The notes under the pieces: generated by a model
Told to the model about the DNA's origin: nothing
What the model saw: only the letters and a program-made list of their open reading frames with translations
Databases searched by the model: none
Made by a program: the position numbers and the translations under genes
Shown here: piece after piece, positions 29,584 to 41,371 of the stretch
How the letters are laid out: each line of letters starts with the position of its first letter
How positions within the stretch are numbered: the first letter of the stretch is position 1
DNA from: an uncultured Chitinophaga sp.
GTDB taxonomy: Bacteria; Bacteroidota; Bacteroidia; Chitinophagales; Chitinophagaceae
DNA length: 64,000 nucleotides
Direction of reading: 5' to 3'
Assembly: GCA_964386395.1 (NCBI GenBank)
Contig: CAYLRV010000001.1
Location: 23,807-87,806 of the forward strand

Positions 29584-31035
29584 TTACTCTCCTACAACCT
29601 CCTCGCTTCCTTTCTTTCGCCAGGATCTATGTTTAGCCCCGTCCATTTTTACAATCTTCGGGGTAAACTTACCGACCACATCCACCAATGCCTTCTGTGA
29701 TTGCATCACAACATTAATATCCTTGTAGGCAAAAGGTGATTCATCCAGTCCGCCACCCAGCAGTTTTACGCCAAACTTATCCAGTTCGTCTTTCATCTGC
29801 TTATCGGTAACAGAAGCGATGGCCCTTGTACGGCTCATCTTCCGTCCGGCACCATGCGAGGCAGAGTTGACAGATGCGGATTCGCCTTTACCTTTTACAA
29901 TAAATCCATCGGCGGTCATTGAGCCCGGTATAATACCCAATACATCTTTACCTGCAGGTGTTGCGCCTTTACGGTGAACGATCACATCCTTACCTTCCCA
30001 TTTTTCTTTCCAGGCAAAATTGTGGTGATTCTCCACCATCTTCACTGGTTTACGTCCCAGTTGCTTCGCAATTTTGGCATGTATTACATGGTGACAGGCG
30101 CTGGCATAATCACCAGCCAGGTTCATTGCATTCCAATACTCTATGCCTTCTTCTTCATCCAGCAAAAGCCAGGCAAGATTTTTTGATTCCTGCGGCAAAC
30201 GCCTTTTGCTGATAGCCAGTTTAGTATAGTGGTTCGCTATGTTAGCACCTAGTGCCCGAGAACCGGAGTGAGTAAGAAAACCAATGTACTTACCAGCTTC
30301 TATACCCAATACCTGATCTTCTTCTGCAATATCCACGACGCCAAATTCGGCGAAGTGGTTACCCGACCCGGATGAACCTAACTGCTTCCACACACGGCCA
30401 TGCAATTTTTTCAGCATCGGTAGTTGAAAAAATAATTCATGCTCCATCACTTCGTGGTTAGCCGCCCGATCGAATTGTGCGCCGCTGCCAAACAATGTAG
30501 CCTCATTGATTTCACGGGCAAAATATGATTCCCGGTCCGTCAGATCTTTTGGGTTGATATCGAATACACTCAGGCACATACGGCATCCGATGTCTACTCC
30601 TACTCCGTAAGGGATAACAGCATTCTCGGTTGCCAGTACGCCACCGATTGGCAATCCATACCCGCTATGTGCATCTGGCATCAAGGCGCCGGCCACACTC
30701 ACCGGCAATTTAGCTGCCTGGTACATCTGGTGCATAGCGCCTTCTTCGATATGTTCCTGTCCAAATACATTAAACTGTATGCCGGTTTGGTTCAGCGAAA
30801 TTTCTGCCCCTTCCGTTTCTTTCTTTGGTATCAGCTGTTCTGCTATCAATGCAAGTACTGCGTCATTGCTGTACTCGATTGGATTGGCCAATACTTTTTG
30901 TAATAGTTCCATCACTTCCTCCTTTCCATGATGCTTATATTTTTTTTGCATCACATCCATTGCTATGCTAATTACCGGTCCTTCCGGGTAGCCAATAGTC
31001 CTTAGTTCTTTTCCTGTTATTTTTAGTTTACTCAT
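29584..31035 (-). CDS. rtcB: RNA 3'-phosphate/2',3'-cyclic-phosphate to 5'-OH ligase RtcB
   Basis: Start at ATG 31035 (MSKLKITG). Diagnostic blocks MPDAHSGYGLPIGGV, GVDIGCRM, GSGNHF, HSGSR, NHHNFA and SASHGAGR. The roughly 90-aa N-terminal extension is not found in E. coli RtcB. Confidence 0.9.
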   Translation of the reverse strand: MSKLKITGKELRTIGYPEGPVISIAMDVMQKKYKHHGKEEVMELLQKVLANPIEYSNDAVLALIAEQLIPKKETEGAEISLNQTGIQFNVFGQEHIEEGAMHQMYQAAKLPVSVAGALMPDAHSGYGLPIGGVLATENAVIPYGVGVDIGCRMCLSVFDINPKDLTDRESYFAREINEATLFGSGAQFDRAANHEVMEHELFFQLPMLKKLHGRVWKQLGSSGSGNHFAEFGVVDIAEEDQVLGIEAGKYIGFLTHSGSRALGANIANHYTKLAISKRRLPQESKNLAWLLLDEEEGIEYWNAMNLAGDYASACHHVIHAKIAKQLGRKPVKMVENHHNFAWKEKWEGKDVIVHRKGATPAGKDVLGIIPGSMTADGFIVKGKGESASVNSASHGAGRKMSRTRAIASVTDKQMKDELDKFGVKLLGGGLDESPFAYKDINVVMQSQKALVDVVGKFTPKIVKMDGAKHRSWRKKGSEEVVGE

Positions 31036-31039
31036 TGTT

Positions 31040-31130
31040 TTGTTTTTTGAAACACGGTGACAGAGAGACAGGGGCGGCACAGTGTTTTTCGGTGTTGCCC
31101 TGTGTCGTTATGCCTTTGTGGTTCTATTTT
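31040..31130. repeat. GAACCACRRAG-type repeat arm (family shared with the GxxExxY cassette flanks)
   Basis: The reverse complement reads gaaccacaaaggcataacgacacagggcaac.... Compare gaaccacggagacacaaggacaggg at 38937. Confidence 0.45.
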
Positions 31131-31166
31131 TTGTTTACCAGCGACAGTAACTCCGGTCATCTTATG

Positions 31167-31352
31167 TTGCGTCGCACACTTCAGCTGCATATCCCTAATC
31201 ATCATAATCCCACATAATTTACCCTTTATTTAGATTCTCAAGCGCATCAATAAACTGTGCAACCCTTTCATCTTCTGACTCCTTGATAATAAAATCTAAC
31301 CGTTCAAAAGTATTTTCCAATAGAATTACAACAGTACAAGTGTGCGACGCAA
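31167..31352. repeat. Perfect 15-bp inverted repeat (TTGCGTCGCACACTT) bracketing about 150 bp
   Basis: 31167-31181 is the reverse complement of 31338-31352. The left arm is also found at 13325. Confidence 0.7.
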
Positions 31353-31383
31353 GGGACGATGATAGAAGCAATACAGCCTGTAA

Positions 31384-31425
31384 CATAAAAACATAAAACA
31401 TCCGGTACCGTTATAATACCGGATG
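31384..31425 (-). terminator. Rho-independent terminator after the SPFH gene
   Basis: 9-bp stem catccggta/taccggatg (31399-31425). On the minus strand it is followed by TTTTATGTTTTTATG. Confidence 0.75.
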
Positions 31426-31429
31426 TATA

Positions 31430-32527
31430 TTATTTACTTACCAAAATCTGCTTCAACTGCTCTAATAGCTGACCGTTACCGCCTACGCTGATATTGCTGA
31501 TTTTGTCGGCAATTTTCTCCACGTATTCCATTTCCTTCAGCTTCCAAAGCATGGCATTTTCTTCCATCAGTTTGGCTGTGTTCAGCAGGCTACGGGTGCT
31601 GGCAGTTTCTTCACGACGCATAATGGTGTTGGCCTGCGCCTTCTTTTCTGCCACCAGTACCTGGTTCATAATCTCTTTCATATCACCTGGCAGTATGATA
31701 TCACGAATACCAAAACCATTCACCGCAACACCCAATGCTTCTGCTTTTCCTTTCACACTTTGCAGGATAAAAGGAGCAATGGCTTCCTTCTTTTCCAGCA
31801 ATTCATCAAAGCCGAATCCGGCAATGTATTCACGCAGGGCCAGTTGCAGCGCCACGTACAGTTGCTTATCGTATTCTTTGTTCAGCACCATAGCTATTTC
31901 AAGGTCTGTTACGTTGTACTGTGACCAGGCATTGATACGCAATGCAGCCTTATCACGGGTCAGTATTTCCTGACCGTTGATTTCCAGTTGTTGCTGACGC
32001 ATATCTGCTTTCGCTACATGGATAGTGATACTGTTCTTCCACCAATAGTAGGTACCTGCATCCAGTTGCTTTACAAACTTACCATCTATGAACAACACCG
32101 CTTTCTCATAGCTTTGCACCTCGTAGTTACGCACCCAGTTGCTCACCGGTGCTTTTACCAGTACGGCACGGTCGATAGCCGTATCGATTTCAACCTGGCT
32201 GATATCAGCCCGAACGAAATCATTTTGCACAACAGATTTCCAGAATGCATAACGGCCGGCCGCCAGCACCTGCTTCAACAGGCCATTTTCGTATTGCAAC
32301 ACTATTTCTGTGTCTTTCACTTCCACTACCTGCAGTATAGCAGCCAGCTCCTTGTCCTGCAACAGGATGTTTAGTTCTACCGGTGCAGTGAATTGTTTGG
32401 TAATATCATAGATATATACCTGTTCGTTTTTCCAGAACCAGTAATTACCAGTCAGCAGCAGGCGCTTGTAGGCGCCATCTTTGAACACCAAACCAACCTG
32501 CCATGCGTTAATTTTTACTTTTTTCAT
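31430..32527 (-). CDS. SPFH/band-7 (slipin-like) domain protein with a duplicated N-terminal beta-rich region
   Basis: Start at ATG 32527 (MKKVKINAWQVGLVFKDG). C-terminal SPFH-type block IRDIILPGDMKEIMNQVLVAEKKAQANTIMRREETA. The N-terminal half contains two similar YWFWKN / YYWWKN segments. Confidence 0.7.
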   Translation of the reverse strand: MKKVKINAWQVGLVFKDGAYKRLLLTGNYWFWKNEQVYIYDITKQFTAPVELNILLQDKELAAILQVVEVKDTEIVLQYENGLLKQVLAAGRYAFWKSVVQNDFVRADISQVEIDTAIDRAVLVKAPVSNWVRNYEVQSYEKAVLFIDGKFVKQLDAGTYYWWKNSITIHVAKADMRQQQLEINGQEILTRDKAALRINAWSQYNVTDLEIAMVLNKEYDKQLYVALQLALREYIAGFGFDELLEKKEAIAPFILQSVKGKAEALGVAVNGFGIRDIILPGDMKEIMNQVLVAEKKAQANTIMRREETASTRSLLNTAKLMEENAMLWKLKEMEYVEKIADKISNISVGGNGQLLEQLKQILVSK

Positions 32528-32839
32528 TTTACTTGTTTTGCCCGTCAATAAACATTTATTTACTGTCAGCATGATTAATTAAAATAAAGCCGTGCTTGCC
32601 GCCACCAGTTACTACGGAATGAGATTAATACAACCCAGTTTCGTACAGTTCTTCACTCCCTCATCAGCTATACGTATATAACAAACTATGAGTGACGAAG
32701 TATAGTCAACTTCATTATACGCTTCTTATTTCGGGTAGCTGCCCGGCTGTATTGGTACAGGCTGCTTTAGCGTCCCGACCAATTACAGGCAACAAACCCG
32801 GCTTTTATCGGTCACCATTTTTTGAGAAGTGGTGTACTT

Positions 32840-33020
32840 CTTTGATACAAGCATCCTAAGTGCTTTGCGTTTACCATTTCCGCCATTTCCCCTTTAGAGG
32901 GAAAGCGGGATTCGAACCCGCATATTGTCTGTTGCTCTGTCCACTAAGCTACCGGGCCCATTGCCCGGATGGGATTCGAACCCATGACCCACAGGTTGTG
33001 GTGATATATGTATCAGTGAA
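32840..33020 (-). ncRNA. Structured RNA with two tandem, circularly permuted tRNA-like modules (YrlA / Y-RNA-like)
   Basis: Minus-sense order is: GATAC ATAT [ATCACCACAA] CCTGT GGGTC; T-arm1 ATGGG-TTCGAAT-CCCAT (32969-32985); loop-closed acceptor hairpin CCGGGC-AATGG-GCCCGG; TA; D-arm1 GCTT-AGTGGACA-GAGC; A; ACAG ACA ATAT G; T-arm2 GCGGG-TTCGAAT-CCCGC (32905-32921); hairpin TTTCCCT-CTAAA-GGGGAAA; TG; D-arm2; anticodon-like arm AAGCA-CTTAGGA-TGCTT; GTATC. The outer segments GATAC/GTATC, ATAT/ATAT and CCTGT/ACAG are complementary. The ends of the RNA are uncertain. Confidence 0.5.
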
Positions 33021-33163
33021 ATAATAGCATACAGATAGCTATTGCGTCTGCACTGCCATGCTTGTTAAACATGTACCTGGTTTATTTTCAACAGGCATAT
33101 ATCATCTTGCCGTTAAGCAAGCCATTACGTTGATGTTTTCGCATCAACAATATTGTAAAGAGC

Positions 33164-34240
33164 TTAATTCATCAATGTCTCCGGCAGGCGAAACCCAATT
33201 ATCTCGGTCTGCTTTACTTCCTGCTGCTTTTCATGCGGGTTGGCGATCTCCGCTATTGTCATCGGACCGGTTATTGTTTTATCATATCCCAAATGTTCGC
33301 TTAGCCGCTGCGCTTTTTCTTTACTGAGCTTTCCGAATTCATAACGGGCTATCAACCTTCCTTTCCGCAACAGGGCACTGTCAATGGCTGTCAGTGAACT
33401 GTTGAATGTGCATATCAATTGCACATTCAGGAAGTCGGCCAGCAGACCATCTGATATATTCAGCAGGTTACTCACCGCTGAACTGCTGTTTTGCTTCCTG
33501 TCCATGATAATATTCTCGGCATCTTCAATTATCAAGACTGTATTCGGGTTATTGATCAGCAGTTCGATAAACTCAGGGTTCATCAGGTTTCCCGCTACCG
33601 ATGGTGAAAGGAATAAAACCCTTTTCTTTACCTTACCCACCAGGTACCGTAAATAGGTTGTCTTTCCTGTACCCGGTAAACCATGCAGCAGTACAATACC
33701 TTTGTCATTCTTTTGCCTGAGCCTTTTTTGTATGACCGTATCCACATCTTTAAAATCGTCTTCGTAAAAAAGTCCCAGATCCAGCTTTGTCCGTTTTATT
33801 TCCATCGCCCGCAGATCCATCGAATTCCGGCTTTGCACAATCAGGTTGATCTCCAATGGCTGCCGGCGTTGCCTTTCTTTAAACTGAAGGGCAATGGCAA
33901 CAATCGCTTTTACCAGTTCCCCGTCACTGCCATCGTGGAGTATTTCGCAATAGTCATCCTCCAGCTCCACAATACAGTTTTGTTGCAACACAATAAGCGT
34001 TTTATCAAACTGAAATTTCTTCTTTTTACGCTTGTACCAGGTCGTCCGATGAATGTTCTTTATTGATTGCGCAAATTTCTCCTGCAATACAGCAAACACC
34101 TTCTCCCCTTCCACATCGCTGATAAAATTGATGTTTGGCAGTGCGTTAAAACTGTACAGGTACAACATCTTTGCGTCCAGGAAAGAGTCGCCAAACACAT
34201 TGTTTGCGTTTATAACTTTCTGACTGTATAGATTTTCCAT
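33164..34240 (-). CDS. AAA+ ATPase (classical AAA clade, Bcs1-like architecture) with an uncharacterised N-terminal domain
   Basis: Walker A HGLPGTGKTT, Walker B VLIIEDAE, second region of homology with RKGRL. The N-terminal roughly 190 aa carry no recognisable motifs. Confidence 0.8.
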   Translation of the reverse strand: MENLYSQKVINANNVFGDSFLDAKMLYLYSFNALPNINFISDVEGEKVFAVLQEKFAQSIKNIHRTTWYKRKKKKFQFDKTLIVLQQNCIVELEDDYCEILHDGSDGELVKAIVAIALQFKERQRRQPLEINLIVQSRNSMDLRAMEIKRTKLDLGLFYEDDFKDVDTVIQKRLRQKNDKGIVLLHGLPGTGKTTYLRYLVGKVKKRVLFLSPSVAGNLMNPEFIELLINNPNTVLIIEDAENIIMDRKQNSSSAVSNLLNISDGLLADFLNVQLICTFNSSLTAIDSALLRKGRLIARYEFGKLSKEKAQRLSEHLGYDKTITGPMTIAEIANPHEKQQEVKQTEIIGFRLPETLMN

Positions 34241-34341
34241 TGTCTTACATTTTAGCTGTTCCGTTGCCGGTAACAGTGTTCCTATTAATTTTTCGTTCCT
34301 TTCCTAATCTCCCGCCCGCAGGCAGGAGACCGAAAAGGTTG

Positions 34342-34848
34342 TTACTGTACCACTTTATTTGCACAGCTGGAGCTGGCAAAAGCTTCCGGTTTAGCCTTGA
34401 AAGCAAAACCCCTGCCTGTCCGGCAGGCAGGCATTCCCATGATATAGCCCATAGCTTCCTTCAGGGCATCGTTACTTTTAAAGTTTGGGTTGGTGTTGAT
34501 GTCCGCATGCACTTCCATATCCACACTGTAGCGGCTGAATATGTTGCACAGTGCATAGGCTACTTCGATACTTTTCTGTACTTCCATCAACATCCGTTCT
34601 TTAATCGTCATACGCTGGCGGGTTGTTTCATTATGGATATACATGAAACCACCTTTCCCTTTCCGGATGAATACGATTACCGTGGCAAACTCAGTCACCC
34701 TGGCTTTCACCTGGCTATCGGTACCAATGCAGACTTTCAATTCATGTCCATTCTCTTTTTCCTGCATCAATACACGGCTTACCTCTTCCGCAATCGGGAT
34801 TTGAATCCGTTCACCGGTCAATTTTCTCCATTGTTGTTCCTGTTCCAT
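34342..34848 (-). CDS. YkuK/DUF458-family RNase-H-like protein
   Basis: 168 aa. KVCIGTDSQ, FATVIVFIRKGKGGF and KPEAFASS resemble the DUF458 family. Carries the 21-nt palindrome in frame at 34411-34431. The start codon lies 30 nt downstream (minus sense) of the last tRNA-like element. Confidence 0.55.
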   Translation of the reverse strand: MEQEQQWRKLTGERIQIPIAEEVSRVLMQEKENGHELKVCIGTDSQVKARVTEFATVIVFIRKGKGGFMYIHNETTRQRMTIKERMLMEVQKSIEVAYALCNIFSRYSVDMEVHADINTNPNFKSNDALKEAMGYIMGMPACRTGRGFAFKAKPEAFASSSCANKVVQ

Positions 34849-34877
34849 TGTTTTTGTTTTTCAATGTTGTGCTGCAT

Positions 34878-34943
34878 AAGTACAAGGATTCGATCCACCT
34901 CCGGTGGATTGTAAGCCATTATGCTACCGTTACATCATACTTG
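34878..34943 (-). ncRNA. Degenerate tRNA-like element A (66 nt)
   Basis: Acceptor-like pairing AAGTATG/TGTACTT plus A73. The interior has a CTTACAA loop-like segment, the hairpin TCCACC-GGA-GGTGGA, and TCGAATCC, but no canonical T-stem. Confidence 0.3.
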
Positions 34944-34950
34944 CTTTTGT

Positions 34951-35022
34951 GGACAAAACAGGATTCGAACCTGTACTGCTGCGGCTTCAACGCAGTGCTC
35001 TGCCATTGGAGCTATTTGTCCT
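34951..35022 (-). tRNA. tRNA-Phe(GAA)
   Basis: GGACAAA TA GCTC-CAATGGCA-GAGC A CTGCG-TTGAAGC-CGCAG CAGT ACAGG-TTCGAAT-CCTGT TTTGTCC A. A fully canonical cloverleaf with no encoded CCA. Confidence 0.9.
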
Positions 35023-35116
35023 TTTGTTTGTACCTGCACTGGCTGATCTTTTACACTTCATCACCGAATTGTGTTGCACAAACTCTGTCTTCCCGCCATA
35101 GCGGAATTATCATTGC

Positions 35117-35204
35117 GGAGAGTAAAGGATTCGAACCTTTGTACCGTTGTGAACGACAGCCCAAGCTTAGCAGGCTGGCACATTACCACTCTGTCAACCC
35201 TCCT
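35117..35204 (-). tRNA. tRNA-Ser(GCU), class II
   Basis: GGAGGGT TG ACA-GAGTGGTAA-TGT G CCAGC-CTGCTAA-GCTTG, long variable arm GTCGTT-CAC-AACGGT, AAAGG-TTCGAAT-CCTTT ACTCTCC G. There is one C.U mismatch in the anticodon stem. Confidence 0.75.
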
Positions 35205-35208
35205 TTGT

Positions 35209-35292
35209 GTGATTAATAAGATTCGAACTTATTCAGCCCGAAGGCAACGGTTTTACAGACCGTTACGACTCTCCGTCTTCGTCGTACTCACC
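35209..35292 (-). tRNA. tRNA-Tyr(GUA), class II
   Basis: GTGAGTA CG ACGA-AGACGGAGAG-TCGT A ACGGT-CTGTAAA-ACCGT, variable arm GCC-TTCG-GGC, ATAAG-TTCGAAT-CTTAT TAATCAC A. Has C8 instead of U8 and one G.A mismatch in the acceptor. Confidence 0.8.
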
Positions 35293-35303
35293 AAAATTTC
35301 AGC

Positions 35304-35380
35304 GGATGAAGAAAGGGTCGAACTTTCAACCATCGGCTTAACATCCGCCACTGGCGGACTGCCATTGAGCTATTCATCCA
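35304..35380 (-). ncRNA. tRNA-like element E (perfect acceptor and T-arm, non-canonical core)
   Basis: GGATGAA TA GCTC AATGGCAG [TCCGCC-AGT-GGCGGA] TGTTAAGCCGATGGTT GAAAG-TTCGACC-CTTTC TTCATCC G. It has no D-stem partner and no 5-bp stem with a 7-nt anticodon loop. ATGTTAA could be a GUU (Asn) loop only with a poor stem. Confidence 0.4.
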
Positions 35381-35384
35381 TTGT

Positions 35385-35458
35385 TGTCCCGGTGAGATTC
35401 GAACTCACAACCCCCCGGTTAAAAGCCGGGTACATCTTCCAGTTGAGCTACGAGACAT
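35385..35458 (-). tRNA. tRNA-Lys(UUU) with a weak D-stem
   Basis: TGTCTCG TA GCTC-AACTGGAA-GATG TA CCCGG-CTTTTAA-CCGGG GGGTT GTGAG-TTCGAAT-CTCAC CGGGACA A. U1-A72 pair. Only 2 of 4 D-stem pairs form. Confidence 0.65.
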
Positions 35459-35464
35459 TTTTGT

Positions 35465-35556
35465 TGCGGCTACCGGATTCACTGTCTGCCGACAGGCAGG
35501 GAACCAGTAACTCCTGCCATGTAAAAACAGCTTTCTCCCATTGAATTAAGCCGCAC
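35465..35556 (-). tRNA. tRNA-Val(UAC)-like with a 20-nt T-loop insertion
   Basis: TGCGGCT TA ATTC-AATGGGA-GAAA G CTGTT-TTTACAT-GGCAG GAGTT ACTGG-TTC[CCTGCCTGTCGGCAGACAGT]GAAT-CCGGT AGCCGCA A. The insertion occupies plus 35482-35501. Confidence 0.6.
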
Positions 35557-35573
35557 TGCTTCATAAGGTTTGT

Positions 35574-35645
35574 GATGGTTGACAGATTCGAACTGTCAGC
35601 CGCTATCGTATCAGGATAGTACTCTGCCATTGAGTTAAACCATCA
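35574..35645 (-). tRNA. tRNA-Ile(GAU)
   Basis: GATGGTT TA ACTC-AATGGCA-GAGT A CTATC-CTGATAC-GATAG CGGCT GACAG-TTCGAAT-CTGTC AACCATC A. Canonical cloverleaf. Confidence 0.9.
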
Positions 35646-35649
35646 TTGT

Positions 35650-35721
35650 TGCGGCTGCCAGATTCGAACCAGCATTTGAAGCTTATGAGACTTCTGAGTT
35701 AGCCATTACGCTAAACCGCAA
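35650..35721 (-). tRNA. tRNA with CAU anticodon (Met or Ile2; cannot be distinguished here)
   Basis: TGCGGTT TA GCGT-AATGGCTA-ACTC A GAAGT-CTCATAA-GCTTC AAAT GCTGG-TTCGAAT-CTGGC AGCCGCA A. One D-stem mismatch and a G.U-rich T-stem. Confidence 0.7.
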
Positions 35722-35730
35722 TTAATATGT

Positions 35731-35804
35731 AAGCCTGGTGAGAATCGAACTCACACTACATGGCTTCTAAGGCCATTGCCTCTCCCAATTGGGCTACAAG
35801 CTTA
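35731..35804 (-). tRNA. tRNA with Leu anticodon UAG on a class I (short variable loop) body
   Basis: AAGCTTG TA GCCC-AATTGGGAG-AGGC A ATGGC-CTTAGAA-GCCAT GTAGT GTGAG-TTCGATT-CTCAC CAGGCTT A. Confidence 0.7.
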
Positions 35805-35814
35805 TTTCATTTGT

Positions 35815-35887
35815 CGGCCAGACTGGATTCGAACCAGTAACCTTTTGCGTATAAGGCAACTGCTCACACCGTTGAGCTACAGGCCGC
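35815..35887 (-). tRNA. tRNA-Ile(UAU)
   Basis: CGGCCTG TA GCTC-AACGGTGT-GAGC A GTTGC-CTTATAC-GCAAA AGGTT ACTGG-TTCGAAT-CCAGT CTGGCCG A. One U.U mismatch in the acceptor. Confidence 0.8.
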
Positions 35888-35895
35888 TTGTTTGC

Positions 35896-35988
35896 TGACT
35901 CAGAAAGATTCCCTGCCAGTCGGCAGACAGGGAACTTTCATCTCCTCATTCGTAGTGAGGTGTTCTTCTCCATTGAACTATAAGTCAT
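35896..35988 (-). tRNA. tRNA-Arg(ACG) with a 20-nt T-loop insertion
   Basis: TGACTTA TA GTTC-AATGGAGAA-GAAC A CCTCA-CTACGAA-TGAGG AGAT GAAAG-TTC[CCTGTCTGCCGACTGGCAGG]GAAT-CTTTC TGAGTCA G. The insertion occupies plus 35913-35932. All four stems are otherwise good. Confidence 0.7.
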
Positions 35989-35993
35989 CATTG

Positions 35994-36110
35994 TACGGCT
36001 TCAGGAATTCCTGCCTGGCCGGCAGCCAGGGAACCTCTGCAACGATCACCTGCTATTTTCCTCTCAGAAAGAAAGGGAGGTGATTATGTTTCCATTACAA
36101 CAAGCCGTAT
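35994..36110 (-). tRNA. Aberrant tRNA-like gene (possible Gln-CUG) with a T-loop insertion and an elongated anticodon arm
   Basis: Acceptor ACGGCTT/AAGCCGT (or TACGGCT/AGCCGTA). Outer stem CACCT/AGGTG encloses CCC TTTCT-TTCTGAG-AGGAA AATAGC. T-loop TTC[CCTGGCTGCCGGCCAGGCAG]GAAT (insertion at plus 36012-36031). The T-stem is weak. Confidence 0.4.
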
Positions 36111-36113
36111 TGG

Positions 36114-36186
36114 GTGCACTGCGGGGCTCGAACCCTGTTCTCCCGATGCACAGTCGGGCACTTTACCAAATAAGCTACAGCCACCA
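36114..36186 (-). tRNA. tRNA-His(GUG) with encoded G-1
   Basis: G(-1) GTGGCTG TA GCTT-ATTTGGTA-AAGT G CCCGA-CTGTGCA-TCGGG AGAA CAGGG-TTCGAGC-CCC.. CAGTGCAC C. G-1 lies opposite C73. The 3' acceptor strand has TG where C is expected, giving a 1x2 internal loop. Confidence 0.7.
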
Positions 36187-36191
36187 TCTGT

Positions 36192-36283
36192 TACCCGGCT
36201 CAGACTCCCTGTCTGCTGACAGGCAGGGAACTGAGAATACCAGACTCAAATTCTGGTGTGTTGCCAATTACACCACCCGGTAA
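36192..36283 (-). tRNA. tRNA-Gln(UUG) with a 20-nt T-loop insertion
   Basis: TACCGGG TG GTGT-AATTGGCA-ACAC A CCAGA-ATTTGAG-TCTGG TATT CTCAG-TTC[CCTGCCTGTCAGCAGACAGG]GAGT-CTGAG CCGGGTA A. The insertion occupies plus 36209-36228. Confidence 0.7.
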
Positions 36284-36287
36284 TCGT

Positions 36288-36335
36288 GCAGCATGAGTGA
36301 ATCCCTGTCTGCAGACTGGAAGTGAACATGCAGCC
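36288..36335 (-). ncRNA. Acceptor-stem-like hairpin enclosing a short copy of the palindrome, flanked by AGTGAA direct repeats
   Basis: gcagcatg (36289-36296) pairs with catgcagc (36328-36335) with one mismatch. The interior is agtgaa-tccctgtctgcagactgg-aagtgaa. The 3' side is followed by CGAT, like the CAAT trailers of the array. Confidence 0.3.
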
Positions 36336-36455
36336 TTCCGCCGCGGCGGATATCCGGCCAATCGAAATGCTCCTATATTTTGCTCAAAGAACTTTTGGAA
36401 AAGCATCCCCGCTGCACCTGCGGGGAGCTTTGTCCCTCCTTCTGCACATAATCTG

Positions 36456-36593
36456 TTAACGCAGTTCATATTCTGCAGGGTGACGAACTTTGCAGTTGGT
36501 CATTCCTTTGTGATGAACATTGCTTTTATTTTCTTTCTTTATCAGCACTTTCACTATAAAGTGAATGGCCAGTACTATCAGTAAAAATTTCAT
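36456..36593 (-). CDS. Small hydrophobic peptide (45 aa), possibly a leader or toxin-like ORF
   Basis: MKFLLIVLAIHFIVKVLIKKENKSNVHHKGMTNCKVRHPAEYELR. The ATG at 36593 is preceded by GAAAGGAGGTAGCT, a strong SD-like AGGAGG that is unusual for this genome. Confidence 0.35.
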   Translation of the reverse strand: MKFLLIVLAIHFIVKVLIKKENKSNVHHKGMTNCKVRHPAEYELR

Positions 36594-36712
36594 AGCTACC
36601 TCCTTTCTATTAACTGCATTTTTTATTTCCGCACTCTTCACCAATTGATTTCCTAACACTTCAACGACGGGAAATCTTTGTGGCAACCCACCTTCGCCAA
36701 AGCTTCGGTGGG

Positions 36713-37800: not shown

Positions 37801-38910
37801 TCAAAACAACCTCCCCTGCCCGCCCGGTACCTGGAACTTACTCCTGTCAAGGCTCCATTCCTCCGCATTCATGCCGTATAGCTTACCGTATTTTTTATAC
37901 TGCATCGCTACCATCTCTGCGATATTCCCTTCGCCACGCATGCGTACGCCCCATCGGGTATCATTTACTTTTCCATCGTGGCTTTGTTCGATCAGGTGCC
38001 ACACTTTATCTGCCCTGTCGGGAAAGTTCTTATATAACCAGTCGTGAAATAGAAATTTTATCGCCCCGTTGAGCCGTATGAATGTATACGCTGTAAAGGT
38101 TGCGCCGTTGTCCTTCGCTGCTTTCATGATACGCTGCATTTCATGTTCATTCAGGCCCGGTATCATCGGCCCCATCATGATGCCCATCCGTACTCCTGCG
38201 CTGCTTAACTCGTTTATCACTTTCAGTTTTTGCTTAGCTGTGGTGGTGCGTGGCTCCATTGCCCTTCGCAGATCTTCATTGAAGGATGTAATGGATACCA
38301 TGGCTGACACAATCTGTTTCTTGCCCATTTCCTGCAGCACATCCTTGTCCTTCAGTATCCAGGAGTTTTTGGTGAGTATACCTACCGGCTGGTTAAATTC
38401 ATTGCAGACTTCCAGTAATCCTCTCGTCAGCCGGTATTTTTGTTCGGCAGGCTGGTAGCAATCGGTATTGCCACTGAGCATGATCGGCGTGGCATCCCAA
38501 TCCTTTTTCATCAGGAATTTTCGCAGCAGTTGTGGTGCATTTTTCTTGACAATTATTTTTCGCTCAAAATCCAGCCCGGCACTGTAACCCCAGTATTCAT
38601 GCACATTTCTTGCATAGCAATAGATGCAGCCATGCTCGCACCCGGCATACGGGTTCATGCTGTACATCATTCCCACATCCCTGCTCTCTACTTTGTTTAC
38701 GATGGTTTTTGATTCCTGTTCCATGTAAATAGTTGGCACATTTGATTCTTCCCAGTCGTCAATGCCTTCAATGTGCTCTCTTGTTGTTTCATTTTTTAAA
38801 AACCGGTTCTTTGTATTGAACTGGGCACCGCGACCGGCGAGGTAGGGCTTTGTTTCTTCAGGTTGCTTCACTTCTACTTTGAAATGATCTTGTTGCAAAT
38901 CCTTGCTCAT
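37801..38910 (-). CDS. Radical SAM protein (PA0069 / SplB-like COG1533 family)
   Basis: CxxxCxxC cluster motif in AGCEHGCIYCYARN. The length and remaining sequence fit the PA0069-type family. Confidence 0.75.
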   Translation of the reverse strand: MSKDLQQDHFKVEVKQPEETKPYLAGRGAQFNTKNRFLKNETTREHIEGIDDWEESNVPTIYMEQESKTIVNKVESRDVGMMYSMNPYAGCEHGCIYCYARNVHEYWGYSAGLDFERKIIVKKNAPQLLRKFLMKKDWDATPIMLSGNTDCYQPAEQKYRLTRGLLEVCNEFNQPVGILTKNSWILKDKDVLQEMGKKQIVSAMVSITSFNEDLRRAMEPRTTTAKQKLKVINELSSAGVRMGIMMGPMIPGLNEHEMQRIMKAAKDNGATFTAYTFIRLNGAIKFLFHDWLYKNFPDRADKVWHLIEQSHDGKVNDTRWGVRMRGEGNIAEMVAMQYKKYGKLYGMNAEEWSLDRSKFQVPGGQGRLF

Positions 38911-38929: not shown

Positions 38930-39482
38930 ATTATTTTGAACCACGGAGACACAAGGACAGGGAGATGCACAGATATACACATACTGCCGGGAGACAGTCA
39001 CGGTGAGCTGGCGACAGGGAGAAGCACAAAAGCCGTGCTTATTTTTAAAGAATCATCCTTTTAATGCCATCTTTCATAAGCGGTGCGTGAAAATTTAATA
39101 CATAGCCAAGCCGCTTTTGTGTAAGGCGCAGGTAACTTAATAGCTGGGCATCCCAAACGGGATGATAGTTATCCTGCGCTTTCAATTCAACAATTATTAA
39201 ATTGTCAATCAATATATCAATCCGAAGACCATCACTAATGATCAATTTATCGTATACCAGTTCTACATTTTTTTGAACAACAAACGGAATATCCCTTTTG
39301 GTCAATTCATAACAGAAGCATTTTTCATACACACTTTCAATTAAGCCCGGACCGAGAAACCTATGGATCTTTATAGCAATATCCATTATTTGATATGTCA
39401 GCCATATTTCCCTTTCGGTTAAAGGTTTATGCTTTTTTTCTGTGCCGCTCCGTGCCGTCATGCCGCTGTGGTTCAAAATATA
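38930..39482. mobile_element. GxxExxY gene cassette bounded by GAACCAC...GTGGTTC inverted repeats
   Basis: Left arm gaaccacggagacacaaggacaggg (about 38937). Right arm ...ccgtcatgccgctgtggttc (about 39455-39474). The gene sits between them. Confidence 0.5.
39045..39461 (-). CDS. GxxExxY protein (PD-(D/E)XK-like family)
   Basis: Eponymous motif GPGLIESVYEKC (G-x-x-E-x-x-Y). The likely start is ATG 39461. Confidence 0.8.
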   Translation of the reverse strand: MTARSGTEKKHKPLTEREIWLTYQIMDIAIKIHRFLGPGLIESVYEKCFCYELTKRDIPFVVQKNVELVYDKLIISDGLRIDILIDNLIIVELKAQDNYHPVWDAQLLSYLRLTQKRLGYVLNFHAPLMKDGIKRMIL

Positions 39483-39483
39483 A

Positions 39484-40095
39484 TCAGAATAACTCCCCCT
39501 GCTTCGTTGCAACCGGCAGGTTCTGGAATTGGAATGTTGCTGCAATACGATATTTCATTTCCCCCACCGGCCGTTTGAGCAAAGTCATGCCATCAGCAAT
39601 AAACCGACCGGTAAAATGCTTTTGACTATACTCCAGCCAGCCCTTTTCATACTGCCAGGGCTTTAATTTCCGGGCAATGGTCAGGTGGGGCTCCATGATA
39701 AAATGCGGTTTATTATCCTCGTTCAGTTTCATCAGGCGCTGGCTTTCTGTACGGATGCTTTTTACCAGGCCTTGTACCGGTAATTTGCTGGTTACATTGA
39801 TATAAATAGTATGCGCCGGAAAACTGCCAAAATCTTTCAGCTCCACTTTAAATGGCGGGAAGCCCATGGCCACATTCCGCAGCCGGTTTAGTATCCGTTC
39901 TTCCAGCATGGCATGCTGCACAAAATTGACCAGCGTAATATGCGGCTTGCCCCATCTTGCATGATCCGATTTGTACGCAGTAGCAAAATCCTCCTTCACT
40001 TTCATTATCCTTTTCCATAGCTCTTCGTGCGGACTAAGCACCAATAAGTACTCATATTCCCGGTAGCCCGGGATCGTGTTGATAATACTTTCCAT
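39484..40095 (-). CDS. 2H-phosphoesterase superfamily protein (LigT / ThpR-like 2'-5' RNA ligase family)
   Basis: Two HxT motifs at the expected spacing: KPHITLVNF and EPHLTIARK. Confidence 0.7.
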   Translation of the reverse strand: MESIINTIPGYREYEYLLVLSPHEELWKRIMKVKEDFATAYKSDHARWGKPHITLVNFVQHAMLEERILNRLRNVAMGFPPFKVELKDFGSFPAHTIYINVTSKLPVQGLVKSIRTESQRLMKLNEDNKPHFIMEPHLTIARKLKPWQYEKGWLEYSQKHFTGRFIADGMTLLKRPVGEMKYRIAATFQFQNLPVATKQGELF

Positions 40096-40247: not shown

Positions 40248-40685
40248 ATGGACGGAGAAGATTTTTTTGGGGCCGCATATAAGGGCTCAAAGCAGTTCAA
40301 GCAACAGGAAGTAAAAACAGCGAACGCCACCGGCTTTGGCGCTGCCGCCGATGATTATATGGAACGGGGTATTGATTTGAATGAGCAACTGATACGAAAC
40401 AAGCCCGCCACCTTCTTCTTCCGCATGAAAGGCGACGCTATGCAGGAAGCAGGTATTTTTGACGGCGATACGCTTATTGTAGATCGCTCTATAAAACTGG
40501 CTAACGGAAAAATAATCGTAGCCATTCTTAACGGAGAATTACTGGTACGCCGGTTCCATAAAAACTTTTCTTCCGCTTTCCTGATTGCCGAAAACAACCG
40601 GTATAAAAATATCAACCTGGCCGAGTTCAGCAACTTCGCTGTGTGGGGGGTGGTGACGTATACGATACACCCCGTCGGCGGTTGA
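40248..40685 (+). CDS. umuD: UmuD-like S24-family protein lacking the Ser/Lys catalytic dyad
   Basis: Collinear with E. coli UmuD (DYMERGIDLNEQLI..., DGDTLIVDRS...). GDSM is replaced by GDAM, and the TVKK lysine region reads LVRR. Confidence 0.7.
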   Translation: MDGEDFFGAAYKGSKQFKQQEVKTANATGFGAAADDYMERGIDLNEQLIRNKPATFFFRMKGDAMQEAGIFDGDTLIVDRSIKLANGKIIVAILNGELLVRRFHKNFSSAFLIAENNRYKNINLAEFSNFAVWGVVTYTIHPVGG

Positions 40686-41371
40686 AAACCCGGCGGGGTT
40701 CGCTTACTAATAAAATTAATTTGTATGGATATTCAACCGATAATCGAAGGCCAGTACTTCCATATTTACAATCGTGGTGTAAACAGCGAAGATATTTTTA
40801 AAGAAAAAAAGAATTACTACTATTTTCTTAAACAGTACAGCTTTTATTGCAATACGGTACTGGATACACTGGCGTATTGCTTATTGAAAAATCATTTTCA
40901 TTTACTCGTGTATGTCAAAGAAAATGTGGAAGTACCCCGCACTGACGGAAAAGAAGGCAGCTTTCGTCTGCATGCATCCAAACAACTGGGGCATTTTTTC
41001 AACTCCTACGCCCAATCCATCAATAAGGCCTATAAACGTACGGGACAACTTTTCGAATCCCCGTTTGAAAGAAAACTGGTGGACGATGAAAGTTATATGA
41101 TGTCCCTGATCTATTACTGTAATCAAAACGCCGTACATCATGGCTTCGTTAAGAGCACAAATGACTGGGAATTTTCTTCCTACCACGCTGTAATAAAAAA
41201 CGATAAAAGCCTTGTGGCTGTAGACCAGGTACTAAAGCGATTTGGCGATATTCAGCGATTTAAAGAAGCGCATACAACTAATAGCATAAAAGAAAAAGAG
41301 CAACAATATATTATAGACTATTAATCACTCTCCTATTTTAAACTACCGTCGGGGCCTACAGCCGCCGACGG
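40672..41371 (+). mobile_element. Y1-transposase-like cassette inserted between umuD and umuC, bounded by a 13-bp inverted repeat
   Basis: accccgtcggcgg (about 40669-40681, overlapping the umuD stop) versus ccgccgacggagt (41362-41374). 12 of 13 positions are complementary. Confidence 0.5.
40725..41324 (+). CDS. IS200/RAYT-like Y1 (HUH) transposase-family protein
   Basis: YFHIYNRG, the HUH-like NHFHLLV motif, and the C-terminal tyrosine helix LIYYCNQNAVHHGFV. Confidence 0.65.
   Translation: MDIQPIIEGQYFHIYNRGVNSEDIFKEKKNYYYFLKQYSFYCNTVLDTLAYCLLKNHFHLLVYVKENVEVPRTDGKEGSFRLHASKQLGHFFNSYAQSINKAYKRTGQLFESPFERKLVDDESYMMSLIYYCNQNAVHHGFVKSTNDWEFSSYHAVIKNDKSLVAVDQVLKRFGDIQRFKEAHTTNSIKEKEQQYIIDY

Follow-up and report, generated by a model that had tools for sequence, protein, structure and literature searches.

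Gene content of the island

We analyzed a 64-kb window of DNA from an uncultured Chitinophaga sp. (contig CAYLRV010000001.1; "the window" refers to this whole stretch), focusing on an island at positions 29584-36593 in which the RNA ligase gene rtcB shares a strand with a dense array of tRNA and tRNA-like genes. The island lies on the minus strand, and its features are on that strand unless otherwise indicated. Read in the direction of transcription, it comprises a 45-amino-acid leader open reading frame (ORF) with a terminator hairpin, ∼17 tRNA or tRNA-like elements, a DUF458 gene, an AAA ATPase gene, an RNA of ∼330 nucleotides (nt), an SPFH gene, and rtcB. An earlier note, made from the sequence alone, had proposed a tRNA-centered island for RNA repair, decoy supply, or RNA processing. 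All elements that it listed were recovered on the minus strand, in the order it gave, as judged by a Pfam scan of the island ORFs, tRNA searches, and comparison with orthologous loci.

The ligase gene (29584-31080; Pfam PF01139, 3e-81) likely starts at the ATG at 31035, from which it encodes 483 amino acids, placing the protein in the archaeal/eukaryotic length class. An alignment with RtcB of T. thermophilus shows that the motifs PDAHxGYG, GVDIGC, GSGNHF, HSGSR, HN, and SxHGAGR are intact, and the protein retains the metal-binding Cys/His/Asp motifs and the GMP-accepting histidine. The gene upstream of it encodes an SPFH/Band-7 stomatin-like protein (31430-32572, with a likely start at M16, position 32527; Pfam PF01145, 5e-27). 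This protein matches stomatin structures with an E value of 4e-15, and the closest solved structures, stomatin and QmcA in the PDB, are cages of 16 to 26 subunits. A hydropathy search for a transmembrane segment found none, and the protein is predicted to be soluble. The AAA ATPase (33164-34240; Pfam PF00004, 3e-11) is a 358-amino-acid, Bcs1-like member of the classical clade whose nearest solved relatives are Afg2, Bcs1, and Rpt3. Its N terminus is an alpha/beta domain of ∼170 amino acids to which no function is assignable from sequence.

The DUF458/YkuK RNase-H-like protein (34342-34848, 168 amino acids; Pfam PF04308/RNaseH_like, 2e-34) keeps the residues D44, E89, E112, H114, and D116, which are invariant in comparison with phage homologs. 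Nuclease activity has never been demonstrated for this family (PMC3985635). The gene follows the last tRNA-like element directly, as had been pointed out before, although the distance from the end of that element (34874) to the start of DUF458 (34848) is 25 nt and not 30 nt.

A terminator and a repeat cassette had also been described ahead of rtcB, and both were recovered. A terminator scan placed an intrinsic-terminator-like hairpin 3' of the SPFH gene (31398-31426), and 25-nt inverted repeats with 84% complementarity surround 156 nt at 31157-31362 (strand neutral), occupying a slot between SPFH and rtcB that varies among genomes. Pfam gave no match to a TROVE/Ro or vWA domain among the island ORFs, in line with the earlier statement that no Ro/Rsr homolog is visible, and none to PrfH or an RF-1 domain; RlaP, RtcA, and RtcR were likewise missing from this window's island by ORF list and Pfam. 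A known defense system was rejected at the sensitivity of PADLOC, whose models yielded only weak P-loop matches among the island components. A σ70 promoter scan returned 13 sites against 13.1 expected, the σ70 consensus being different from the Bacteroidota promoter consensus.

Conservation in Chitinophagaceae

We found 356 relatives of the AAA protein in species-representative genomes and studied the best 80 of these 356 loci. All 80 are from Chitinophagaceae or unclassified Bacteroidota, except one metagenome-assembled genome (MAG) labeled Bordetella. For a census of gene content we used the 54 loci whose flanks extend 4 kb or more upstream and 7 kb or more downstream of the AAA gene, counting an array where there were at least three tRNAs. 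The AAA gene is accompanied by rtcB in 46 of the 54 loci, by DUF458 in 40, by a tRNA array in 38 (10 or more tRNAs in 19 of them, 16 in the largest), and by SPFH in 33. The ∼330-nt RNA was detected by BLAST in 31 loci and never without SPFH, and rtcB is present in all 33 SPFH-positive loci with full flanks. Array, DUF458, SPFH, and rtcB are found all together in 25 loci, or in 24 if detection of the RNA by BLAST is also required. The recurrence in Chitinophagaceae that the earlier note had suggested checking is therefore real, and it extends to a Niastella-type rearranged order (array, AAA, DUF458, RNA, SPFH, RtcB) that keeps every part. Conservation in dozens of genomes excludes chance as the source of this arrangement. 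Within the family, protein identity is 65 to 87%, and the ORFs and motifs are intact.

The surroundings of the island are conserved as well, with syntenic flanks that include a PA0069-family radical SAM gene (35 loci), a 2H phosphoesterase gene (41 loci), and a NagX-like gene (20 loci). The GC content of the island is unremarkable, and no relatives of the AAA protein were found in IMG/VR viral contigs. The island is therefore an old, fixed chromosomal feature of Chitinophagaceae and not a recent mobile insert. A prophage or mobile-island origin was considered and rejected on the same grounds.

In this window, the 2H phosphoesterase/LigT-like gene (39484-40095, minus strand; PF13563, 2.4e-21; motifs HITL and HLTI) lies ∼3 kb upstream of the array. 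Being of the RNA 2',3'-cyclic phosphodiesterase type, it could act in the same RNA-end metabolism or be a coincidental neighbor. Between it and the island are the gene for the PA0069-family radical SAM protein (37801-38910, minus strand), which reaches up to ∼95% identity among the best of the 35 related loci, and a gene for a GxxExxY/PDDEXK_3 protein (39045-39545, minus strand).

A divergent tRNA array

The number of tRNAs recovered from the island depends on the method, with 7 found by ARAGORN at default settings, 9 at the Rfam gathering threshold, and 10 to 11 at relaxed settings. Manual comparison with orthologous arrays raises the count to ∼17 elements at 34874-36373, all on the same strand, packed within 1.5 kb, and in many cases only 3 to 10 nt apart. 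The previous estimate of about 15 tRNA or tRNA-like genes was thus close in number, but only about half of the elements are canonical.

The first array member by synteny is a degenerate Pro-UGG-like element (36287-36373), read against the orthologous Pro(tgg); its anticodon loop is shortened, and the T arm contains a palindrome-like insert. It is followed by a Gln-UUG tRNA-like element (36191-36282; 17.9 bits) with a 20-nt palindrome in the T-loop, an insert of the same kind being present in the Gln ortholog of locus L013, and by a weak tRNA-His-GUG (36112-36185; 36.3 bits, above the gathering score). The next element, X (35994-36108), is tRNA-like and was missed by the tRNA finders; we recognized it by alignment with 14 orthologs situated between His and Arg (among them those of loci L001, L005, L010, L012, L017, L018, L025, and L027). 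Its anticodon arm is expanded by ∼21 nt, with an outer stem TCATCT/AGATGA, an inner CCTC/GAGG hairpin, a TTTCT loop, and an 8-nt 3' bulge, and in this genome it has a T-loop palindrome in addition. An Arg-ACG tRNA-like element (35894-35989; 26.2 bits), again with a 20-nt palindrome in the T-loop, precedes a run of tRNAs detected by ARAGORN, for which we give the Rfam scores: Ile-UAU (35813-35886; 64.2 bits), Leu-UAG (35729-35803; 59 bits), a tRNA with a CAU anticodon, either Met or Ile2 (35648-35720; 49.8 bits), and Ile-GAU (35572-35644; 65.8 bits).

In the second part of the array, a Val-UAC tRNA-like element with a 20-nt T-loop palindrome (35464-35556) takes the position of Val(tac) in related arrays, and tRNA-Lys-UUU (35383-35457; ARAGORN; Rfam, 53.5 bits) has a noncanonical D stem that is kept across loci. 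A degenerate tRNA-like element (35302-35379; 33.2 bits) stands where related arrays have Asn-GUU, followed by a weak tRNA-Tyr-GUA (35209-35293; 38 bits) and by tRNA-Ser-GCU (35115-35203; ARAGORN; Rfam, 52.8 bits). The interval between Ser and Phe is filled by element Y (35022-35114), a hairpin spacer of ∼70 nt that we aligned with 15 orthologs; with its GTTTG..CAAAC outer stem and TGATGA...ATCAG core, it may serve as a signal for processing or for protein binding. The array closes with tRNA-Phe-GAA (34949-35021; ARAGORN; Rfam, 63.5 bits), its most widely kept member, and a degenerate tRNA-like element at the Trp-CCA position of related arrays (34874-34944; 23.6 bits). Among the anticodons listed in the earlier note, Lys-UUU, His-GUG, Tyr-GUA, and CAU were found by the programs, and Arg-ACG and Gln-UUG are present with a T-loop palindrome, whereas the Asn position is degenerate.

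Array size ranges from 0 to 16 tRNAs between genomes, with a clear preference for certain members. Those most often kept across the census loci are Phe-GAA (33 loci), Lys-UUU (31), Asn-GUU (29), Arg-ACG (27), and Gln-UUG (27), and after them His-GUG (23), Asp-GUC (22), and Glu-UUC (18). None of the arrays contains Thr, and few contain Ala, Val, or Gly. Known anticodon nucleases prefer wobble-modified tRNAs of two-codon boxes, which are the classes most kept in these arrays; the bias toward ribotoxin targets that had been noticed in this one genome fits this list. The array tRNAs diverge strongly from the one non-array (housekeeping) tRNA, a Phe tRNA, with which they were compared. Their D stems are unusual, the anticodon loops of one Phe type are 9 nt long, and CCA is not encoded.

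Palindromic inserts

The palindromes in the array belong to one family of 20 to 21 nt, CCTGCCTG..CAGGCAGG, of which the window holds six copies, all inside the island and none elsewhere in the 64 kb. Five are in T-loops of array tRNAs (36304-36326, 36208-36230, ∼36011-36033, 35912-35934, and 35481-35503). In Gln-UUG, element X, Arg-ACG, and Val-UAC, the 20-nt palindrome sits exactly between TTC and GAAT of the T-loop (GAGT in the case of Gln-UUG), while the insert of the Pro-like element is only related, or palindrome-like. The insertion point is the center of the palindrome TTC|GAA, and removal of the insert restores TTCGAAT. These inserts explain why Arg-ACG, Gln-UUG, and Val-UAC were missed by the detectors. 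The remaining copy, of 21 nt, is in frame within the DUF458 coding sequence (34411-34431; seven codons, PACRTGR) and accounts for a seven-residue insertion in this protein relative to all homologs. Eleven other loci have related copies, most of them within arrays and some at non-tRNA sites.

On the simplest reading, the inserts would be DNA insertions resembling repetitive extragenic palindromes (REPs), with a striking local bias to the island. A RAYT-like gene at 40725-41324 (plus strand), recognized by a weak match (45.9 bits against a cutoff of 80), could mobilize them; it adjoins a UmuD/LexA-like gene at 40248-40685. We also considered archaeal-type bulge-helix-bulge introns and rejected them, as the inserts fold into either a continuous hairpin or a symmetric 3x4 loop. 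The single copy in frame in DUF458 and the related copies at non-tRNA sites also speak against introns, and it is extremely improbable that DUF458 and RtcB remove the T-loop palindromes as protein-spliced introns.

A structured RNA linked to SPFH

The spacer between the AAA and SPFH genes encodes a structured noncoding RNA of ∼330 nt (32790-33128), recognized by conservation and covariation. Its 5' part contains hairpins and an invariant CAG..CTGTATGCTG core, after which come a first T-arm, a closed acceptor-like stem, and a first D-arm, then a short linker, and then a second T-arm, a second closed stem, and a second D-arm. The 3' part consists of an anticodon-like arm and a hairpin whose loop pairs with four downstream bases to form a pseudoknot. 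With two T-arms, two closed acceptor-like stems, and two D-arms, the RNA corresponds to the double permuted tRNA-like RNA of the earlier note.

The RNA is conserved at 67 to 80% nucleotide identity in 50 of the 80 related loci by BLAST. An RNAalifold consensus of 27 sequences contains 67 pairs, 39 of which show compensatory changes. For the pseudoknot we counted 7 distinct pair types over 46 sites, a value reached in 0 of 2,000 shuffles. A covariance model built from the RNA core detected the RNA, at 62 to 172 bits, ahead of all SPFH genes tested (two of them cases missed by BLAST) and never without SPFH. The same model cross-matches tandem array tRNAs at 20 to 60 bits. We infer that some three array tRNAs in tandem, read out of register, gave rise to the RNA. 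Rfam holds no family that matches it above threshold; YrlA (RF02553) reaches 39.2 bits, below its gathering score of 69, and the match is confined to model positions 23-88, the tRNA-like module.

A leader ORF and terminator upstream of the array

Upstream of the array lies the leader ORF of 45 amino acids (36456-36593), which is conserved in at least 12 related loci. The leader peptides share the pattern MKFLxxVLAxxF, a variable middle rich in K, N, H, and E, and a conserved C-terminal RHPAE(F/Y)xLR. In agreement with the earlier description of a hydrophobic ORF led by a Shine-Dalgarno (SD) sequence, the N terminus is hydrophobic (KD19 of 2.1) and AAGGAGG precedes the ORF (36594-36610). A second strong AAGGAGG SD-like sequence is located just 3' of the leader stop codon (36431-36440). 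Bacteroidota mostly do without SD-led initiation, and a strong SD sequence is unusual in this phylum; the two SD-like sequences may be relevant to the sensing of ribosome state. The leader ORF is followed by a terminator-like GC hairpin with a U-run (36397-36431; ΔG of −25.6 kcal/mol, z score of −2.5), which is conserved in related loci, and a conserved GCAGAAGGAGG upstream of the hairpin pairs into an extended stem. To judge from this arrangement, leader ORF and hairpin together are a candidate attenuator.

Partners of the island proteins in other genomes

The slot between SPFH and rtcB, which in this genome holds only the 25-nt inverted repeat around 156 nt, varies in content. It contains RlaP nucleotidyltransferase pairs in five loci, HEPN_LA2681 in two, and DinB_2 in six, and elsewhere also a weak HepT-like gene, DUF5677, and several large proteins without a Pfam match (examples are L017:6916-8532, L045:4084-5688, L035:15768-16313, and L023:8307-10101). 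Full-length SPFH homologs outside the phylum, at 36 to 42% identity, were found in Citrobacter, E. coli, and Subdoligranulum. The neighbors of SPFH are rtcR and an annotated nucleotidyltransferase in Citrobacter, a nucleotidyltransferase of the same kind in E. coli, and RtcB in Subdoligranulum; the nucleotidyltransferase is probably RlaP.

Regions upstream of these three SPFH genes carry one or two T-arm motifs each (L081:5700-5990, L082:5760-6050, and L083:7560-7830), and Rfam reported no family in them. The RNAs have T-arms in common but cannot be assigned to a single cross-phylum family, since the covariance model misses the enterobacterial SPFH-upstream RNAs and scores only 18 bits in Subdoligranulum. 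The enterobacterial regions also carry a σ54-like TGGCACGCTTCTGGCA element.

The AAA family is large, with 1,796 clusters at an E value of <1e-30, the cluster names giving Chitinophaga or metagenome proteins. We surveyed distant homologs at 33 to 42% identity (contig P0171 and loci L095, L093, L097, L099, L100, and L089). One, 40% identical, is part of an RtcB-PrfH-AAA operon, another is encoded directly upstream of RtcB in Chitinophaga skermanii, and a further lineage has it near RF-1 and RtcB genes. In Bernardetia and Persicobacter, AAA homologs stand alone, without tRNAs or RtcB. The RNA repair framing of the earlier note gains support from the RlaP and HEPN RNase genes in the slot and from the distant RtcB-PrfH-AAA operon.

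DUF458 homologs are present in 75 large phage records, and in a Pseudomonas phage the gene is near tRNA genes. In the Vibrio phages EniLVp02 and D484 (T4-like and jumbo), DUF458 is located directly 3' of a gene annotated as an "RNA-binding protein" with DUF2828 and DUF7788/vWA domains (L087:3275-5471 and L088:3485-5492), which we take to be related to Ro/TROVE. This suggests a repeated partnership of DUF458 with scaffolds binding tRNA-like RNAs.

Proposed function and alternative explanations

The reading that we favor, with somewhat more confidence than doubt, is that the island is a vertically inherited Chitinophagaceae operon combining an inducible supply of spare or decoy tRNAs with RtcB repair scaffolded by an SPFH-RNA complex. 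It would extend the repair system of RtcB, SPFH, and a tRNA-like RNA and most likely keep tRNAs usable under damage by toxins or translational stress. The leader ORF and terminator hairpin would gate transcription, with disturbed translation of the leader, as under stress or after loss of particular tRNAs, leading to more read-through. Read-through would produce a polycistronic transcript of ∼17 divergent tRNAs and tRNA-like elements, biased toward wobble-modified two-codon-box species (Lys, Asn, His, Asp, Gln, Glu, Phe, and Arg-ACG) that could serve as spares and/or as decoys for anticodon nucleases. Its intact acidic residues and its position suggest that the DUF458 RNase-H-like protein would process or trim array RNAs or damaged ends. 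Oligomers of the soluble SPFH protein would bind the cognate double tRNA-like RNA and form a ribonucleoprotein scaffold, analogous to Ro-Y RNA, on which the Bcs1-like AAA ATPase would load or remodel substrates. RtcB, whose catalytic motifs are present here, would then reseal breaks with 2',3'-cyclic-phosphate and 5'-OH ends, which is the established chemistry of its family. It is gene order that suggests a role of the array as decoys, as spares, or as repair substrates.

Several observations weigh against this reading. The functional assignments are predictions made by guilt by association. A terminator and a 350-nt spacer precede rtcB, which may for this reason be a separate transcription unit. 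Among the census loci, AAA and rtcB occur without SPFH in 13, and the AAA gene is alone in 5. The array is associated with DUF458 (Fisher p = 2e-4) and with SPFH (p = 7e-4), but these values come from loci that are phylogenetically nonindependent. Some distant AAA homologs occur with WYL (sometimes together with PDDEXK_4) or beside AbiEi/AbiEii, instead of with RtcB; given these pairings and the separability of the parts, the AAA protein may have a more general role. Its AlphaFold model is poor (pLDDT score of 49), and Foldseek found only a weak full-length match to Bcs1 (TM score of 0.19). Finally, with five array members interrupted by a palindrome and several others degenerate in this genome, these elements may be decaying rather than functional.

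The arrangement could also be a case of synteny without shared function, in which an extra tRNA operon (meeting codon demand, for example) and its neighbors have been inherited as a block. Nearly all 80 loci are indeed from one family (one MAG is labeled Bordetella) and their flanks are syntenic too; seven array tRNAs are canonical, and rtcB has a spacer of its own behind a terminator. We nevertheless think this explanation unlikely. The Niastella-type order keeps all parts, SPFH and the noncoding RNA are gained or lost as one unit, and AAA-RtcB and SPFH-RtcB adjacency recurs in other lineages. Moreover, RNA repair and HEPN genes insert into the locus, the array tRNAs diverge strongly from a housekeeping tRNA, and the same component classes are coregulated, though unlinked, in a cyanobacterium (PMC10272220). 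If the island were instead the relic of an anciently acquired L-array element, now turning into pseudogenes, this would accommodate the five palindrome-interrupted tRNAs, the degenerate ones, the palindrome inside the DUF458 coding sequence, and array sizes of 0 to 16. Such decay is very unlikely in view of family-wide protein identities of 65 to 87%, intact ORFs and motifs, compensatory evolution in the noncoding RNA, and an insertion in DUF458 that is in frame.

Two further explanations assign the island a different target or purpose. It might belong to an RNA-targeting defense or abortive-infection system, where a HEPN-type RNase toxin borne in the slot cuts tRNAs upon infection, and RtcB, the spare tRNAs, and the SPFH ribonucleoprotein form the antidote arm that later brings translation back. 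We consider this improbable, because the slot of this window has no nuclease gene, HEPN genes occur in a minority of loci only, no component matches PADLOC models, and the locus is a stable chromosomal fixture, not a shuffled defense island. It would nonetheless fit the presence of HEPN_LA2681, HepT-like, and DUF5677 genes between SPFH and rtcB in some loci, the position of distant AAA homologs beside AbiEi/AbiEii and WYL regulators, and an array made up of the usual targets of anticodon nucleases. The repair could alternatively be directed at ribosomes, with RtcB and the AAA protein mending cleaved rRNA or rescuing stalled ribosomes in the manner of RtcB2-PrfH and the tRNA-like RNA acting as an A-site or P-site mimic to direct the complex to damaged ribosomes. 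This would agree with the RtcB-PrfH-AAA operon and its 40%-identical AAA homolog, with genes for RF-1-domain proteins close to AAA and RtcB in a further lineage, and with published ribosome repair by RtcB2-PrfH (PMC9223846, PMC13166195). The island itself has no PrfH or RF-1 gene, however, and the strongest local partner is the tRNA array, which makes ribosome repair distinctly unlikely.

Returning to tRNA supply coupled with SPFH-RNA-scaffolded repair, we can sketch a more specific version, a "tRNA emergency kit" in which the attenuator senses the loss of the array's own tRNA classes (Lys, Asn, His, and similar) and turns on the spare tRNAs and repair factors. A soluble SPFH cage, the Bcs1-like AAA protein, and the double tRNA-like RNA, itself descended from tandem array tRNAs, would form a cytosolic ribonucleoprotein compartment that captures nicked tRNAs for trimming by DUF458 and handover to RtcB. 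Both features are undescribed for RNA repair systems, and this version is speculative, with a limited chance of being correct.

Bacterial RtcB is widespread, while its natural substrates and partners are largely unknown, and we know of no experimental work on the SPFH-linked RtcB branch. Here, all proposed components are found in one conserved operon of culturable soil bacteria (Terrimonas, Niastella, Lacibacter, and Chitinophaga relatives), so that the RtcB-SPFH hypothesis and that of the L-array as an RNase sponge become directly testable by genetics. The island also offers new leads, namely a well-supported family of structured RNA missing from Rfam, an initial clue to the function of DUF458, an AAA-RtcB pairing that recurs, and a candidate attenuator that would sense translation, in a phylum mostly doing without SD sequences.

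Comparison with known systems

The literature that we searched contains no description of all these modules in one operon, of a DUF458 partnership, of a recurrent AAA-RtcB pairing, of the leader with its terminator, or of the double permuted architecture of the RNA. The earlier note had regarded the partners of RtcB in this island as not known to be described with it. This holds for DUF458 and the AAA-RtcB pairing in the literature searched, but not for SPFH, which has been reported both with a tRNA-like RNA (PMC3543383) and in an rtc locus (PMC13086221), nor for the slipin and AAA protein of an Anabaena regulon (PMC10272220).

The systems nearest to the island combine RtcB, SPFH, and a tRNA-like RNA. 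Burroughs and Aravind reportedly predicted in 2016 that SPFH/Band-7 scaffolds act with a cognate tRNA-like RNA in RtcB systems, and are said to have named RlaP among the components. In Pelobacter, a tRNA-like gene (Pcar_R0061) was described in 2012 together with a stomatin-like gene, rtcA, and rtcB under the control of RtcR (PMC3543383), and the rtc locus of P. aeruginosa includes the SPFH gene PaFlo8 (PMC13086221). The island shares with these systems a soluble stomatin-like SPFH protein encoded behind a tRNA-like RNA, with RtcB on the same strand and RlaP as an option; we take RlaP, RtcA, and RtcR to be optional and not defining. It differs in having no RtcR, σ54 promoter, or RtcA, and in the addition of a 17-member array, DUF458, a Bcs1-like AAA protein, and a leader ORF. 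The RNA is also of another type, being a ∼330-nt double permuted tRNA-like RNA with a pseudoknot instead of a single mutant tRNA.

The coupling of tRNAs with RtcB has its counterpart in Anabaena, where a long tRNA array is coinduced with rtcB by translation inhibitors and a model of sponge or spare tRNAs with RtcB repair has been proposed (PMC8421152). The combination of spare or decoy tRNAs with RtcB, put forward in the earlier note, had therefore already been published. The translational-stress regulon of Anabaena TrcR also holds a slipin and an AAA-family ATPase (PMC10272220). In both organisms, a long array of divergent tRNAs is linked to rtcB and to proteins that are similar by family description, a slipin or SPFH protein and an AAA-family ATPase. 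In Anabaena, however, these genes are scattered, with the array residing on a megaplasmid, and the repressor TrcR controls them, whereas here the parts are clustered at a fixed chromosomal site behind a leader ORF and terminator. The array has the at least 10 tightly spaced, divergent tRNAs on one strand that define an L-array. L-arrays are thought to have spread horizontally, in contrast to the fixed site here, with syntenic flanks in 20 to 41 loci and no GC anomaly.

Other RNA repair systems share parts of this design. In rsr-yrlBA-rtcBA of Salmonella, as here, the genes for a putative scaffold protein and RtcB adjoin that of a tRNA-mimicking RNA (PMC7790460, PMC4201824). The island has no Ro/TROVE protein, its match to YrlA is below threshold and does not include the Ro-binding stem, and SPFH stands in the place of the scaffold. 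The RtcB2-PrfH module likewise joins RtcB with accessory factors against ribotoxin damage (PMC9223846, PMC13166195, PMC6514570), but PrfH is missing here; in the passages of PMC6514570 that we searched, the AAA ATPase is not among the listed PrfH-RtcB accessories. Spare tRNAs and an RNA ligase also act together against anticodon nucleases in phages, through tRNA arrays and the repair of PrrC-cut tRNA-Lys by Pnkp and Rnl1 of T4 (PMC7824862). The island differs from these in being a host chromosomal locus without viral AAA relatives in our searches and in having RtcB rather than an ATP-grasp enzyme as its ligase.

A parallel for the pairing of SPFH with an AAA protein is offered by HflK/C-FtsH. 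In HflK/C-FtsH and stomatin cages, SPFH oligomers enclose an AAA+ machine or a client. As in HflK/C-FtsH, the SPFH protein of the island is encoded with an AAA ATPase of the classical clade; here, however, SPFH is without a membrane anchor, the AAA protein is without a protease domain, and the presumed partner is an RNA.

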